Shown here: piece after piece, positions 3,846 through 61,510 of the stretch | Layout of the letters: the number at the start of each line of letters is the position of its first letter | How positions within the stretch are numbered: position 1 is the stretch's first letter | Assembly: GCA_910586195.1 (NCBI GenBank) | Contig: CAJUHO010000003.1 | Coordinates: 2,529 to 66,528 of the forward strand | Origin: an uncultured Bacilli bacterium | GTDB taxonomy: Bacteria; Bacillota_I; Bacilli_A; RF39; UBA660 | Direction: 5' to 3' | Length of the DNA: 64,000 bases | Notes under the pieces: generated by a model | The model's database searches: none | What the model was told of the DNA's origin: nothing | What the model saw: the letters and a program-made list of their open reading frames with translations, nothing else | Made by a program: the position numbers and the translations under genes

Positions 3846-3931
3846 TTGATTCACTCCTTCCGCCATGACAAGTTTATGTCATAGTAATTAAATGCGTTAT
3901 TAATATATCAAACTTTTTTATATTTGGCAAG

Positions 3932-10752: not shown

Positions 10753-11499
10753 TCATTTTAAAATCAATTCAAGTTTTTTTTGCAATCTTTTAACTTCATC
10801 TTCACTATTCTTATATACATCATTTGATTGCATTTTAAACGTCTCATATATTTCATATATATTATTAGGACTAATTATTCCTTTTTGGTTTAATTGTTCA
10901 ATTATTTTTTGAAACGGAAGAATATCATGTTCATCATATAATTCACCACAATCATATAAATTTCTCTTGCCTGTTATAAAATCAGTTAAATACAATCTTT
11001 TATTATCATAATTAGATATATTATTTAATTCTTTATATTTAGATAATTCATTTTCTAGTAATCTGATATCTAATTTTTTTGATGAGTTCTTATCAAATTC
11101 ACTTTCAGGTATACAAAACTCAACATGTGCTTTCCCCTTATAAAAACCATATCCACAATACTTTAATAAAATCTCTGCTGGAATATTATATTCCAAGAGT
11201 TCAAATTGCCATTTCTCATAACAATATCCATCTATACTAGAAAATGTGCACATTATAGCATCATAAGAAAAAAGAAAGAAAAACTTATAGCACTCATCTA
11301 AGAATTTAAATGTATTTACAACTTCTTCATTTCTTGTAAAAAAAGGATATACATTCTCAAAAGAAACACATCCCAAATCATACATAATGCCTTCTAGATT
11401 TTCTTGTTGACTATTTAACGTGCCAAACTTTTCAGTAGTAGAAGTAAGTGAAGGAACTGTCCTATAAACAATTGCCATAAAATTCGACTCCCTTTTCAA
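10753..11499 (-). CDS. hypothetical protein (aromatic/Cys-rich, no recognisable family)
   Basis: 248 aa ORF with an AAGGGAG RBS 8 nt upstream; inserted between prfA and rpoE; own terminator-like hairpin downstream (about 10700-10740). Confidence 0.55.
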   Translation of the reverse strand: MKRESNFMAIVYRTVPSLTSTTEKFGTLNSQQENLEGIMYDLGCVSFENVYPFFTRNEEVVNTFKFLDECYKFFFLFSYDAIMCTFSSIDGYCYEKWQFELLEYNIPAEILLKYCGYGFYKGKAHVEFCIPESEFDKNSSKKLDIRLLENELSKYKELNNISNYDNKRLYLTDFITGKRNLYDCGELYDEHDILPFQKIIEQLNQKGIISPNNIYEIYETFKMQSNDVYKNSEDEVKRLQKKLELILK

Positions 11500-11711: not shown

Positions 11712-12155
11712 TTATTCATCTAATTCTAGTTCATCTTCATCTAATACCACTAAATCTTTTAAATCTTCTTCTGTATCATCGTCATAGTCCTCATCAGTAT
11801 CATCATAATTATCTTCATCTATTTCATCTTCTGATTCATCTTCTTTTACAAATTCTTCTTCTAACTCATCATCATCTTCTTCTGTAATTTTCACTACTTT
11901 ATCAGAAGTATGACGACTTTTTATATCCCAAGTTCCATCACTTAATAATATAAATCTTTTATCTGTTGTTAAAGAAGTATAATAATCTCCTATTTTCGTT
12001 TCAAATTCTTTGTTTGGTAATTCTAATAGATGAATTATTGTTTTAAAAAGGTCTGCTGTATTCATAGGTTTTTTATTTTCTTCCAAAAGTAGGTTGGTAA
12101 TATCTTTATATGATAATAATTCCAAATCTTCCTTTTTCATTTCTTTTATACTCAT
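11712..12155 (-). CDS. rpoE: RNA polymerase delta subunit
   Basis: N-terminal HARE-HTH-like domain (LSYKDITNLLLEE...) followed by a long D/E-rich acidic tail, the RpoE hallmark. Confidence 0.85.
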   Translation of the reverse strand: MSIKEMKKEDLELLSYKDITNLLLEENKKPMNTADLFKTIIHLLELPNKEFETKIGDYYTSLTTDKRFILLSDGTWDIKSRHTSDKVVKITEEDDDELEEEFVKEDESEDEIDEDNYDDTDEDYDDDTEEDLKDLVVLDEDELELDE

Positions 12156-12222: not shown

Positions 12223-14328
12223 TTACATTTTTTCTGGAACTTCTATTCCTAAGGTATCAAGTAATAACATATTTGTATCATAAACTACTTTTGTTAGGGC
12301 AATCCAGCTCATTTTCAAATCCTCATTTTCTTCTGTTAAAATTTTATTTTCTGCATAAAAAGTATTATAAAGACTTGTTAGTTTATATATGTATTCTGCT
12401 ATTTCATTTAATGATTTTACTTCTAATGATTTTTTTAAAACCGTTGGAAGTTTCAATATAGTTAATGCAATATTACGATCTGAGGTTCCACGAAACTGTT
12501 TAAAGGAAATATTTTCTAAATTCTTCATATCTGCCTTTTGTAAAAGTGATTTCATTCTAATCGTTGAATATAGAAGATATGGGCCTGTCTTCCCTTCTAC
12601 ATCTGTAAATTTTATAGGATCAAATATATAGTCCTTTGTTCTAAATGATAGAAAATCTGCATACTTTAATGCAGCAATTCCCACTATTTCTGCAATTTTT
12701 TCTGATTCATCACTTTTTACAATATCTTTATTAATATGTTTTAGAATTTCTTCTTTTACCATGGTAATTAGATTTTGTAGAGTCATTACACCGCCATCAC
12801 GTGTTTTAAATGGTCTGCCATCATTTCCTGTCATAGTACCAAATCCGCAAAATTCTAAATTGATACTATCATCTACTAATTTTGTTAACTTAGAAGCACG
12901 AAAGACCTGTTCAAAATACAATGCTTGACGAGTGTCGGCAAAATACCAAATCTCTTCTGGCGAAAAACGAACAATTCTAGAATGTAGTGTCGCAAGTTCT
13001 CGTGTTGCATATAATGTGGAACCATTTGATTGTATGACAATAAGAGGTGGCATAGGACCATTATCTTCCTCTTTTTTGACGGAAATGATATGAGCTCCTT
13101 CACTCTTTTCTAACTTTCCACTATTTTTAATAATTTCTAAAGTTTCTGGAATATAAGAGTAGCAGTCGCTTTCTCCTTCTAACAAATCAAAGTCTGTATT
13201 AATTTTTTTATAAATTTCTTTAATATCTTCTATTGATACATCTTTAATTTTATTCCATAGTGCCTGATATCCTTTGTGTCCTTCTTCCAATTGTTTGGTA
13301 ATCTCTGCTACTTCCTGCATTCGAGATTCATCTTCTTTTGCTTTAGTACTTGCTAAAGGATAAATTTCTCCTAACTCCTCTGGTGTTATTGTATAATCAA
13401 TATCTTCATAATTGCCCTCATAATGCTCATCAAAATAGGAAAGGTTCGGATATCTTCTTTTTATCTCTGAAATTACCATTCCTGATTGTCTTCCAATATC
13501 TCCAAAATGGGCATCCGATATCACAGTATGTCCTAATAATCTTGCAAGTCTTTTTACTGCCTCTCCAATATTTGCAGAACGAAGATGACCAACATGTAGA
13601 GTTTTTGCAATATTAGCACCACCATAGTCCATCATAATTTTTTTGCTTTCTACATGATCAATATTAGTGTTCATATCTTTTTGAATTTTATTCATACTAT
13701 TTAATAAAAATTCATTTGTTAAAGTCAGATTAATGAATCCTGGGGCTACCACAGATACATTGCTAAAATTCCTATCTTTCTTTAATTCTTCTGCAATTTT
13801 CTCAGCAATAAAATTAGGATTTTCATGATACTTCTTAGCAAGACTCATCGCTTCATTTATTTGATAGTCTCCTAAATCTGGACGGTTCGATGGTAGAAGA
13901 GAAAAATGTTCCATTTCATAACCAATATGCTCAATTTTTTCTTTTACTTCTTGTTCTAGCTCTTTTATTATACTCATATTTTCACCTACTAATTCTATCT
14001 TTAATAAATATTCTATTTCATTTAGTAAATATTTTATTCTTATTTTCTCATGTGTTAATAATATATCTTTTATTTCCAAATCTAGACTATAGTTTAAATG
14101 CTCTTTTTTTAAATACAAACTGCTTTTTTGACCTTTTTCAAAAGCAAGCTCTACTAACAGATCTTTCGTCTCACGCATAAATGTTCTTTCTGATATACAA
14201 AAACGATTTTTACTATCATCATCCAATGAAAAATAATAAATATCATTTTTCTTTATATCAATATCAACAAATGACTGTATTATCGCATCTTGTGATTTTA
14301 AAAAAAAATATGCTTTTTGTTTCACCAT
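12223..14328 (-). CDS. argS: arginyl-tRNA synthetase with an in-frame 117-aa N-terminal DUF1934(YwiB)-like extension; canonical ArgS start at 13977
   Basis: HVGHLRSANIGEA HIGH motif, DLGDYQINEAMSLAK N-domain and class I core; the ORF continues with no stop for a further 351 nt upstream. Confidence 0.85.
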   Translation of the reverse strand: MVKQKAYFFLKSQDAIIQSFVDIDIKKNDIYYFSLDDDSKNRFCISERTFMRETKDLLVELAFEKGQKSSLYLKKEHLNYSLDLEIKDILLTHEKIRIKYLLNEIEYLLKIELVGENMSIIKELEQEVKEKIEHIGYEMEHFSLLPSNRPDLGDYQINEAMSLAKKYHENPNFIAEKIAEELKKDRNFSNVSVVAPGFINLTLTNEFLLNSMNKIQKDMNTNIDHVESKKIMMDYGGANIAKTLHVGHLRSANIGEAVKRLARLLGHTVISDAHFGDIGRQSGMVISEIKRRYPNLSYFDEHYEGNYEDIDYTITPEELGEIYPLASTKAKEDESRMQEVAEITKQLEEGHKGYQALWNKIKDVSIEDIKEIYKKINTDFDLLEGESDCYSYIPETLEIIKNSGKLEKSEGAHIISVKKEEDNGPMPPLIVIQSNGSTLYATRELATLHSRIVRFSPEEIWYFADTRQALYFEQVFRASKLTKLVDDSINLEFCGFGTMTGNDGRPFKTRDGGVMTLQNLITMVKEEILKHINKDIVKSDESEKIAEIVGIAALKYADFLSFRTKDYIFDPIKFTDVEGKTGPYLLYSTIRMKSLLQKADMKNLENISFKQFRGTSDRNIALTILKLPTVLKKSLEVKSLNEIAEYIYKLTSLYNTFYAENKILTEENEDLKMSWIALTKVVYDTNMLLLDTLGIEVPEKM

Positions 14329-14436
14329 ATTTACCCCACAAATAAAATTCTATTCTAGATTATAACATAACTTATAGAAAAAAAATACATATTTAAAAAT
14401 AATTTTTTCATACTAACCTTAGAAGGTGATTTCATC

Positions 14437-16401
14437 ATGAAATATATTAAAAAACTTTTAAAAATGACTACTATTTTTATAATACTAATGTTTATTTTGA
14501 TAGTAGGTGTCTACACATATGCAAAACTCTCTCCTAAATTAGAAATTAATGGAGCTAACAGTCTTGCTATTTTTGATAATCAGGGTGAACTATTTTTTCA
14601 GGGAAGTGGTTCTAAAAAATGGATTGAACTAGAAAATATTTCTCCCAACTTAATTAATGCAACGCTTGCTGCTGAAGATAAAAACTTTTATAATCATAAG
14701 GGATTTGATTTACTTCGTATTTTAAAAGCGACTTATATTAATATCACATCCAAATCAGTAGAACAAGGAGCCTCTACTATTACACAGCAATATGCTAAAA
14801 ACTTATTTTTAGATTTTGATAAAACTTGGAAGAGAAAGATTGAAGAAATGTGGTACACTATCGAAATTGAGGCTCATTATAGTAAGGATTCTATTTTGGA
14901 AGGATATTTAAATACTATTAATTATGGTCATGGTATGTATGGAATTGAAAATGCAAGTAAATTTTACTTTAACAAAAGTGCAAAGAATTTAACATTAGCA
15001 GAAGCAGCAATTTTAACAGGTATTCCAAAGTCTCCCTCGAATTACTCACCTATTGTCGATTTAGATGCTGCCAAAAAAAGACAGTTATTAATTCTTAATT
15101 TAATGGTCAAAAATAAAATGATTACAGAAAAGGAAAAAGAACAGGCATATCAAGAAGAATTAAATATTGTAGGGAAAGATAGTGATTTTAATCTTAATAC
15201 TGTTATGTATTATCAAGATGCAGTATTAGATGAATTAGAAAAAATTTCCTCTATCCCTAGCTCTTATTCTAAAACAAAAGGACTAAAAATTTACACTAGT
15301 CTTAATTTAGATGCTCAGACAAATCTGGAAAATATTATTAAAGAAGAATTTCCTGATGAATCAAAACTTCAAGTTTCTACTGTTATGATGAATCCTCAAA
15401 CGGGAGAAATTGTAGCATTAATTGGAGGGAGAGATTACAATAGTTCCCAGTACAATAGGGCAACAGATGCTATGCGACAAGTAGGATCTACGATGAAACC
15501 TTATCTTTATTATGCTGCACTAGAAAATGGTTTTACATCTAGTTCTTCTTTTACTAGTGAAAAAACAACCTTTACTTTTGCTAATAATTCTACTTATTCA
15601 CCTAGAAATTATAATGATTTGTATGGAGAAAAACCAATATCTATGGCTACCGCCATTGCCTACTCTGAAAATATTTATGCTGTAAAAACACATATGTTTT
15701 TAGGAAGTGAAGTTTTAATTGATGTTGCAAAAAGAGTAGGAATTACTGCAGATTTAGAAGATGTAGCATCTCTTCCTCTTGGGACGAAAGAAATTAATAT
15801 TACAGAAATGGCTGCAGGATATAGCGCTTTTGCTAATGAAGGATATAGAATAAAGCCTCATTTAATCACAAGAGTAGAAGATTATAATGGAAATGTTTTA
15901 TATCAAGCAAAACCTGAAAAAAAACAAGTTTTAGATAAAAGTTTAACCTTTATTTTAAATAATATGCTAACAGGAACTTATGATTCTGATTATATAGATT
16001 ATAACTATCCAACTGCTATTTCTCTAGCATCCAAATTAACGCATAAATATGCTTTAAAATCTGGAACTACTGAAACAGACAATTGGTATATTGGATATAA
16101 TAAAAATATTGTTACAGCAGTTTGGGTTGGATATGATAATAATGCTACTTTATCTAATAAAGAATATAAATATGCCCAAAATATCTGGTATAAAACTATG
16201 GAAAGTTATGAAAAAGATAAAAAAGATAATTGGTATGAAATACCTGAAAATGTATCTAGTGTTCTAGTGGATCCAATTTCTGGCAAGCCTGCTACGGATG
16301 AAAGTCCTAAGAAAAAAATAATGTATTTTATAAAGGGTACAGAACCAACTATTGCCGATAGTGTATTTGATGAAAAACTTACCAACAGTGAAAAGAGCTA
16401 A
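14437..16401 (+). CDS. ponA: class A penicillin-binding protein (transglycosylase + transpeptidase)
   Basis: N-terminal TM; GT51 motifs EDKNFYNHKGFD and ITQQYAKN; transpeptidase STMKP (SxxK), SEN, KSGTT (KTG). Confidence 0.9.
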   Translation: MKYIKKLLKMTTIFIILMFILIVGVYTYAKLSPKLEINGANSLAIFDNQGELFFQGSGSKKWIELENISPNLINATLAAEDKNFYNHKGFDLLRILKATYINITSKSVEQGASTITQQYAKNLFLDFDKTWKRKIEEMWYTIEIEAHYSKDSILEGYLNTINYGHGMYGIENASKFYFNKSAKNLTLAEAAILTGIPKSPSNYSPIVDLDAAKKRQLLILNLMVKNKMITEKEKEQAYQEELNIVGKDSDFNLNTVMYYQDAVLDELEKISSIPSSYSKTKGLKIYTSLNLDAQTNLENIIKEEFPDESKLQVSTVMMNPQTGEIVALIGGRDYNSSQYNRATDAMRQVGSTMKPYLYYAALENGFTSSSSFTSEKTTFTFANNSTYSPRNYNDLYGEKPISMATAIAYSENIYAVKTHMFLGSEVLIDVAKRVGITADLEDVASLPLGTKEINITEMAAGYSAFANEGYRIKPHLITRVEDYNGNVLYQAKPEKKQVLDKSLTFILNNMLTGTYDSDYIDYNYPTAISLASKLTHKYALKSGTTETDNWYIGYNKNIVTAVWVGYDNNATLSNKEYKYAQNIWYKTMESYEKDKKDNWYEIPENVSSVLVDPISGKPATDESPKKKIMYFIKGTEPTIADSVFDEKLTNSEKS

Positions 16402-16457: not shown

Positions 16458-16802
16458 ATGAATAACAATAATTATTTAAATTATCCAAATACTGGTGCAC
16501 CTAATTATACAGGAACTATGCCTCCTTATCAAAATATACAAAATCCAAATAATGGAAATTCAATCAATTTATCTCCAGAGGAATATGCTGAAAGCTTATT
16601 AAAATTAAATCATGGAAAATATGCTGAATTCTATATGTCTTACGCTGATTCTAATCAGTGGAAAGATAGAATTTTTAGGGGTACTATTGAAGATTCTGGT
16701 AGAGATTATGCTGTTTTAAAACAAGATGATGGTAGTTATGTAATTTTATGGTTAGTTTACTTGGATTACGTTATTTTTCCAGAAAAGATAACACACAATT
16801 AA
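16458..16802 (+). CDS. GerQ/YwdL-like spore coat protein
   Basis: N/Q/P-rich N-terminus; C-terminal LNHGK...FYMSY...F.G.IEDSGRDYAVL...LDYVIF block resembles the GerQ domain. Confidence 0.45.
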   Translation: MNNNNYLNYPNTGAPNYTGTMPPYQNIQNPNNGNSINLSPEEYAESLLKLNHGKYAEFYMSYADSNQWKDRIFRGTIEDSGRDYAVLKQDDGSYVILWLVYLDYVIFPEKITHN

Positions 16803-48228: not shown

Positions 48229-48395
48229 AAGTCCACTTTTTTTGTGGAAAAGTAAAATAATTAGTTGCTTTTTTTTATGAGTTATATTAAAATGTAATCG
48301 GTACAATGAATATGTTGGAACTAGGTCAGGATCGGAAGATAGCAGCCTTAACAAATTTTATTCATGTGTACCATTTTTTATGGAGTGAATTATCT

Positions 48396-61289: not shown

Positions 61290-61510
61290 TTGATTGTTTT
61301 GATGGAGAGTTTAATAGATAGCATTAGTTAAGAGAGTTCTTGTTGGTGGAAATAGAATCTAATGAACTATTAGATATGGCTTCTGAACTATTAAGTTGAT
61401 AAGTAAGCTTAATCGTTTAATAGGCGTTAACTATTTGAGTGTATAATGAACATTATAAAATAAGGTGGTACCGCGAAGATTCGTCCTTATGTTATAATGT
61501 TTTTTGTGTC
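61290..61510 (+). ncRNA. T-box riboswitch leader (Met-specific by context) upstream of metG
   Basis: Conserved T-box sequence AAGGTGGTACCGCG at 61462-61475; AGAGAG stem-I box near 61330; extended -10 TGATATAAT at 61273-61281; terminator T-run before the RBS. Confidence 0.7.

Follow-up and report, generated by a model that had tools for sequence, protein, structure and literature searches.

The cytoplasmic arginyl-tRNA synthetase of mammals is made in a long and a short form from two start codons of one mRNA, and its extension, a helical leucine-zipper segment, docks into the multi-synthetase complex and serves protein–protein association. The Trbp111/Arc1p-type tRNA-binding domain is a protein of its own in some bacteria, whereas others carry it at the C-terminus of MetRS, and there the fusion revealed the functional link of a small accessory protein with an aminoacyl-tRNA synthetase (aaRS). 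For YwiB/DUF1934, an orphan family, a crystal structure has existed since 2003. In Bacillus subtilis, YwiB (UniProt O07624, PDB 1R0U, DUF1934/PF09148) is a separate protein of 142 aa, and its gene adjoins argS. A literature search for experimental work on YwiB/DUF1934 function found none, and a lipocalin survey lists YwiB as a singleton (PMC4532494). In the supplements considered here of a whole-cell crosslinking and co-fractionation study of B. subtilis (PMC10090944), YwiB was detected with no crosslinks, its co-fractionation candidate was aspartokinase 1 (AK1_YWIB), and the ArgS–YwiB pair was absent. In the size exclusion data of supplementary file 4 of that study, the 16-kDa YwiB begins to come off a few fractions before the 63-kDa ArgS, with an earlier peak, and this part of the data set suggests that YwiB is not a free monomer in the B. 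subtilis lysate.

Here we describe a locus of an uncultured Bacilli bacterium in which a YwiB-like beta-barrel domain and arginyl-tRNA synthetase (ArgS) share one open reading frame (ORF). The locus lies in the window, the whole 64-kb stretch of DNA that was analysed. The type of system is not new; new are a lineage-restricted aaRS fusion and a testable hint for an orphan family. As for mammalian ArgRS, one gene would, through alternative initiation, yield a core isoform and an N-terminally extended one, the isoforms being only predicted in the window, whereas the mammalian extension is unrelated to the barrel in fold and origin. The likeness to the Trbp111/Arc1p-type domain is that an accessory protein of an aaRS occurs in two arrangements, encoded on its own or appended to a synthetase. 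That domain, however, has an OB fold, belongs to another synthetase, is widely fused and is a demonstrated tRNA binder, while the YwiB-like barrel is mostly acidic to neutral. With B. subtilis YwiB the domain of the window shares fold and position, but it has 117 aa, is only 13–18% identical and is fused to ArgS.

The ORF listing of the window gives a single ORF on the minus strand (12223..14328, stop codon 12223..12225) encoding 701 aa. The protein begins MVKQKAYFFLKSQD..., and at the junction ...KIELVGEN is followed directly by MSIIKELEQEV..., the residues before the latter being ...EYLLKIELVGEN. Reading the DNA confirmed an ATG at 14328 and another at 13977, with GGTGAAAAT immediately 5′ of the second, so the in-frame extension of 117 codons is exactly as the preliminary description had claimed. 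ArgS models match residues 118/120–701 only. TIGR00456 (argS) scores 365.4 bits over residues 120–701 against a curated cutoff of 261.65, which places the protein in this family, and Pfam finds Arg_tRNA_synt_N (PF03485) at 123–203, tRNA-synt_1d (PF00750) at 217–570 and DALR_1 (PF05746) at 585–701. The HIGH motif reads HVGH (residues 245–248). A complete ArgS module of 584 aa therefore occupies 12226..13977 on the minus strand, starting at the internal ATG 13977..13975, and shares 83% identity with the ArgS, also of 584 aa, of the unfused relative L001. In all relatives ArgS starts at the homologous ATG or GTG. There is no second argS copy within the 64-kb window. The extension does not stay open by chance: at 29% G+C, stops are expected at 0.11 per codon (about one in nine codons), the probability of 117 open codons is about 1e-6, none of 100,000 shuffled versions of the segment stayed open, and its remaining two frames hold 19 and 13 stops.

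The N-terminal domain (13978..14328, minus strand, start ATG 14328..14326) had been proposed to be a small beta-rich domain of the DUF1934 (YwiB) type. It has the YwiB fold: a small, closed barrel built entirely of beta strands, which superposes on PDB 1R0U. The suggested search of the 117 aa with PF09148, in contrast, gave no match at E ≤ 1 (gathering score 22.5 bits), so the segment stays outside formal membership of that family, and the NCBIfam scan did not find DUF1934 in it either. Matches to PF09148 of any strength are rare among family members (0 of 15 and 2 of 29): one relative, L054_up, scores 29.8 bits, above the threshold, and another, L028_up, has a sub-threshold but full-length match of 14.4 bits. 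Since L054_up also matches the profile of the window's own family (A8; E 1.6e-11, 35.9 bits, 47-sequence set), a chain of homology runs from the window family through L054_up to PF09148, covering the C-terminal two-thirds of the domain. Against PDB sequences, phmmer and hmmsearch never reached 1R0U, whether the query was the segment itself, any of three family profiles or the member positive for PF09148, so that sequence comparison is not enough by itself to place the domain. On the basis of the bridge through L054_up and the conserved position upstream of argS, we take the 117-aa domain to be a divergent homologue of YwiB/DUF1934, beyond the reach of the present Pfam model. The proposed identity thus stands on fold, homology chain and gene position, and not on a direct Pfam match.

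Relatives were gathered by scanning one genome per species (9 loci) and metagenomes (80 loci), with ArgS identities of 45–83%. About 45 of them carry a family member of 102–137 aa directly upstream of argS, and among some 50 loci none is fused. Co-directional argS directly downstream of a YwiB-like gene is thus common to the window, about 45 related loci and the PF09148-positive L054 group. The stand-alone genes of the clade (P0001, P0002, L009–L015 and L027–L083) are homologues at 68% down to about 20% identity, with profile E-values from 1e-32 to 1e-5, and they share with the window the penicillin-binding protein (PBP) gene, the small gene, argS and the delta-like gene in the same neighbourhood, as well as the 5′ region and the argS Shine-Dalgarno (SD) sequence. 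In the comparison with relatives that the preliminary description suggested, the small gene has its own stop in all of them: it lies 14, 4 or 1 nt inside argS or at most 12 nt before it, and only in the window's clade are the frames joined. Overlaps of 14 nt occur in L001, L004, L007 and L027. Coupling this tight (overlap 1–14 nt or gap ≤12 nt) was seen in about 45 of 55 loci, at ArgS identities of 50–83%, and extends to the PF09148-positive branch. In L010, L035, L037, L063, L073 and L075 the small gene and argS already share a frame, with the stop of the small gene 3–12 nt before the argS start; these six are one stop-codon substitution away from a fusion and yet unfused, so fusion is clearly not generally favoured. 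No YwiB-like gene adjoins argS in L008, L045, L068 and L071, and the small gene is therefore not indispensable at that position. In L008 a histidine-phosphatase-like ORF with an RHG motif (2444–2992) ends 8 nt before argS, and the GTGATAAAGATG junction is kept.

The neighbouring genes were also compared. A class A PBP gene (14437..16401, plus strand; Pfam Transgly and Transpeptidase) diverges from the fused ORF and is a conserved neighbour, found also in L001 and L017–L026. Beside it lies a GerQ spore-coat homologue (16458–16802, plus strand, 77 bits), from whose presence we conclude that this reduced lineage of 29% G+C, labelled 'uncultured Bacilli/Tenericutes', probably sporulates. Downstream of argS, a 147-aa gene with an acidic tail (11712..12155, minus strand) has a weak HARE-HTH match (PF05066, 19.7 bits, cutoff 25.9), is RNA polymerase delta-like and is conserved in relatives. 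The slot between it and prfA (window 10753–11499) differs among relatives that are otherwise 92–100% identical: it holds an ORF of 241–248 aa in the window, L017 and L019, ORFs of 53 and 166 aa in L023, L025 and L026, a 978-aa ORF in L021, and SHOCT and DnaG-zinc-ribbon ORFs in L001. The 241–248-aa ORF has no Pfam and no PADLOC match. This slot looks like a strain-variable insertion hotspot.

The origin of the fusion can be read from its closest relatives. The small genes P0001 and P0002 (121 aa, 68% and 63% identical to the 117-aa segment) sit between the divergent PBP gene and argS, as in the window. In the closest relatives the small gene ends ...GGT GAT AAA GAT GAG TAT AAT TAA, and the argS start, ATG AGT ATA ATT AA.., is embedded in this end as a 14-nt out-of-frame overlap. 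The junction of the window (13978..13987, minus strand; alignment of window, L001 and L007) consists of the argS SD sequence AGGTGA (13987..13982) and AAAT (13981..13978), where the relatives have TAAAG or AAAAG, i.e. one base more between GGTGA and ATG. It is the loss of this base that puts the small gene and argS in one frame. Codon 4 of argS in the window is ATA instead of ATT, and the former out-of-frame TAA is thereby gone. Several lineages (L001, L007, L027) share the 14-nt overlap with a tail ..E(Y/H)N, a tail also seen in P0005; this overlap is therefore ancestral for the subclade and the fusion derived. The preliminary description had supposed that the stop codon of a separate upstream gene was lost; the separate gene and the fusion are borne out, and since the junction is 1 nt shorter than in the relatives, the event was a 1-nt deletion in the overlap and not a point mutation of the stop codon. 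The ancestral locus was a two-gene operon in which the last 14 nt of a barrel gene of about 121 aa overlapped the argS start in another frame, an arrangement that gave translational coupling. One base lost between AGGTGA and ATG then brought both genes in frame, and the synonymous change ATT>ATA at argS codon 4 removed the old TAA.

The fusion is a genuine, lineage-specific, derived state: two parts that are separate genes in relatives form one ORF here, reproducibly. The exact 701-aa protein occurs on at least 28 contigs (NCBI, ENA, Logan), and its 90% cluster holds five further 701-aa alleles down to 93% aa identity (six distinct alleles). The junction DNA ...GTAGGTGAAAATATGAGTATAATAAAAG... 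is identical in 10 fused loci from different samples, with GTG for GTA in the most divergent allele. That allele (L021/L022) is only 92–93% identical in DNA over the whole locus including the PBP gene, which is under the usual species boundary, so the fusion is older than a substantial split. Among the best 120 ArgS homologues, 701 aa is found in the window's own cluster only, and the others have 536–584 aa. A profile searched exhaustively against 1.84 billion representative proteins gave 14 matches, none of about 700 aa and all stand-alone proteins of 104–136 aa bar one; the exception, the 1599-aa P0008, was rejected as a multi-domain relative because its match to FN3-like repeats is spurious. 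Queried with the 117 aa, a word-indexed search for homologues gave two stand-alone proteins only, without the 701-aa cluster to which the query itself belongs; this reflects the limit of the word index, and absence from that search is not evidence of absence from the database. The fusion is restricted to one small clade and has a single origin.

The internal ribosome-binding site suspected before 13977 is present. The argS SD sequence AGGTGA, 4 nt before the ATG, forms a duplex of -10.5 kcal/mol, equal to that of unfused relatives; no other in-frame ATG of the 701-aa ORF has so strong a duplex before it. Since the ORF retains both this SD sequence and the ATG, internal initiation very probably continues to supply the ordinary 584-aa ArgS. 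The signals at 14328 that the preliminary description had looked for are more mixed: there is a weak SD sequence GGGG (14334..14337, minus strand; duplex with the 16S 3′ end) 5 nt before the upstream ATG, whose duplex of -6.1 kcal/mol is the same as for the stand-alone small gene in L001, and, read from the sequence, an extended -10-like element TGTTATAAT (14359..14367, minus strand) marks a putative promoter, with no good -35 match. A promoter and terminator scan was uninformative in this AT-rich DNA (29 found, 22 expected). The 120 nt 5′ of ATG 14328 are 98–100% identical among fused alleles and nearly identical in the unfused L001. This stretch is better conserved than coding DNA, and the signals by which relatives must express the stand-alone gene are therefore intact in the window. 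The divergent intergenic region as such, from the PBP gene to the fused gene (14329–14436, 108 nt), is 98–100% identical in the most divergent fused lineage, compared with 92–93% for the flanking coding DNA, and nearly identical in L001, which suggests dense shared regulatory signals.

Initiation at the conserved ATG 14328 would necessarily yield the 701-aa barrel–ArgS protein with almost no linker (..VGEN-MSII..), and initiation at the argS ATG the 584-aa enzyme. The locus would thus give two ArgS isoforms and no free barrel protein, which we infer to be the most economical reading. Leader-type explanations were considered as well. An arginine-codon-rich regulatory leader ORF was rejected, the 117 codons holding only 4 Arg and the product being a well-folded conserved domain. 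Rfam finds no T-box and no other leader RNA near 12–15 kb, and a leader of this kind for argS was likewise rejected. Elsewhere in the window, Rfam models above gathering score are a T-box leader (61290–61491, plus strand, 110.8 bits), a small SRP RNA (48290–48388, plus strand, 65.8 bits) and an L31-Firmicutes ribosomal protein leader (3854–3884, minus strand, 35.8 bits).

The preliminary description held that a fusion to an aaRS would hint at the function of the uncharacterised partner. The tight argS coupling over wide divergence, together with a fixed and selected fusion, supports, rather than proves, a partnership in which the barrel normally serves ArgS as an accessory or a regulator. A linker of about three residues would tether the barrel to the N-terminal tRNA (D-loop)-binding domain of ArgS, and since the fusion is fixed in lineages about 8% apart in DNA with the barrel under selection, this tethering is at least tolerated. 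The best surviving alternative grants that the fusion exists and is translated but denies it any functional meaning: because internal initiation kept supplying normal ArgS, an almost neutral accident could have become fixed by drift, and it would then be silent on a YwiB–ArgS partnership. Chance fusion is easier for operon neighbours than for unlinked genes, and a single origin in a narrow clade, relaxed constraint on the barrel after fusion and the missing ArgS–YwiB pair in the part of the B. subtilis interaction data considered here all agree with such an accident. Yet if the functions were unrelated, there would be a price to pay for having no free barrel and for a share of the essential ArgS carrying an appendage; the barrel remains under purifying selection after fusion, and the coupling, kept in about 45 of 55 loci as well as in the PF09148-positive branch, argues for co-function. 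We take neutral fixation as a live possibility and lean against it. The more specific proposal reads the fusion as a Rosetta stone for YwiB/DUF1934, a family conserved beside argS in Bacillota: the barrel would be a dedicated ArgS partner, would dock at or near the N-terminal D-loop-binding domain and modulate tRNA-Arg charging or couple it to a small ligand in the barrel, and here would act in cis, with long and short isoforms from one mRNA. This proposal is tentative and, taken as a whole, rather doubtful. A general RNA-binding role of the barrel is unsupported, most family members being acidic to neutral (pI about 4.6–6).

Less probable still is a reading of the 117 codons as a remnant in decay or a leader that is untranslated or irrelevant, the barrel becoming a pseudogene after the frameshift and only ArgS from the internal ATG mattering. 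Across four fused alleles, the variable sites of the barrel comprise 15 synonymous and 27 non-synonymous ones, with no stop and no indel in any allele, although stops arise at about 0.11 per codon; the neutral expectation is 82% non-synonymous (binomial P = 0.005), and the replacements are mostly conservative and of surface type. The ArgS part of the fused clade has 112 synonymous and 46 non-synonymous sites. Pairwise dN/dS values of the fused barrel are 0.11, 0.33 and 0.99 (small counts; one allele pair has 2 synonymous to 9 non-synonymous changes), with omega for the clade at about 0.3–0.4, while ArgS gives 0.06–0.08 and two stand-alone barrel genes 0.17. Purifying selection on the barrel thus persists after fusion, in what looks like a relaxed form. 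The raised dN/dS would fit slow decay too, the internal SD sequence is much stronger than the upstream one, and the four relatives without a small gene beside argS mark it as dispensable there. The departure from neutrality and the intact reading frame speak against decay, however, as do the upstream ATG, SD sequence and promoter-like region, which are identical to those by which the stand-alone gene must be expressed in relatives, and we judge a remnant or leader improbable.

A sequencing error had been raised as grounds for refuting the fusion. As a homopolymer error in one assembly, in which a base dropped from the short A-run before the argS ATG falsely joined two genes, it is itself effectively refuted: the difference from relatives is indeed one base in an A-rich stretch, but the run has only 4 A, the same junction recurs in the 10 loci, which differ in sample and in assembler (ENA SPAdes contigs, Logan, NCBI), the protein is repeated on its many contigs and in six alleles, one at 8% DNA divergence, and putting the base back would not return the small ORF to its ancestral TAA stop, a codon that is itself altered.

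Taken as a whole, the locus is best explained by a lineage-specific fusion through loss of 1 nt, with two predicted ArgS isoforms and a selected barrel tethered to ArgS, and of this explanation we are fairly confident. The locus documents a path from a 14-nt out-of-frame overlap to a fusion through a single-base deletion, with the internal start site kept. It also reveals a large branch of the YwiB family in uncultured gut Bacilli that is invisible to the present Pfam model. A fixed, selected in-frame fusion is genomic evidence, independent of adjacency, that the barrel can operate on the ArgS N-terminus, and it turns guilt-by-association for the orphan YwiB family into a testable YwiB–ArgS hypothesis.
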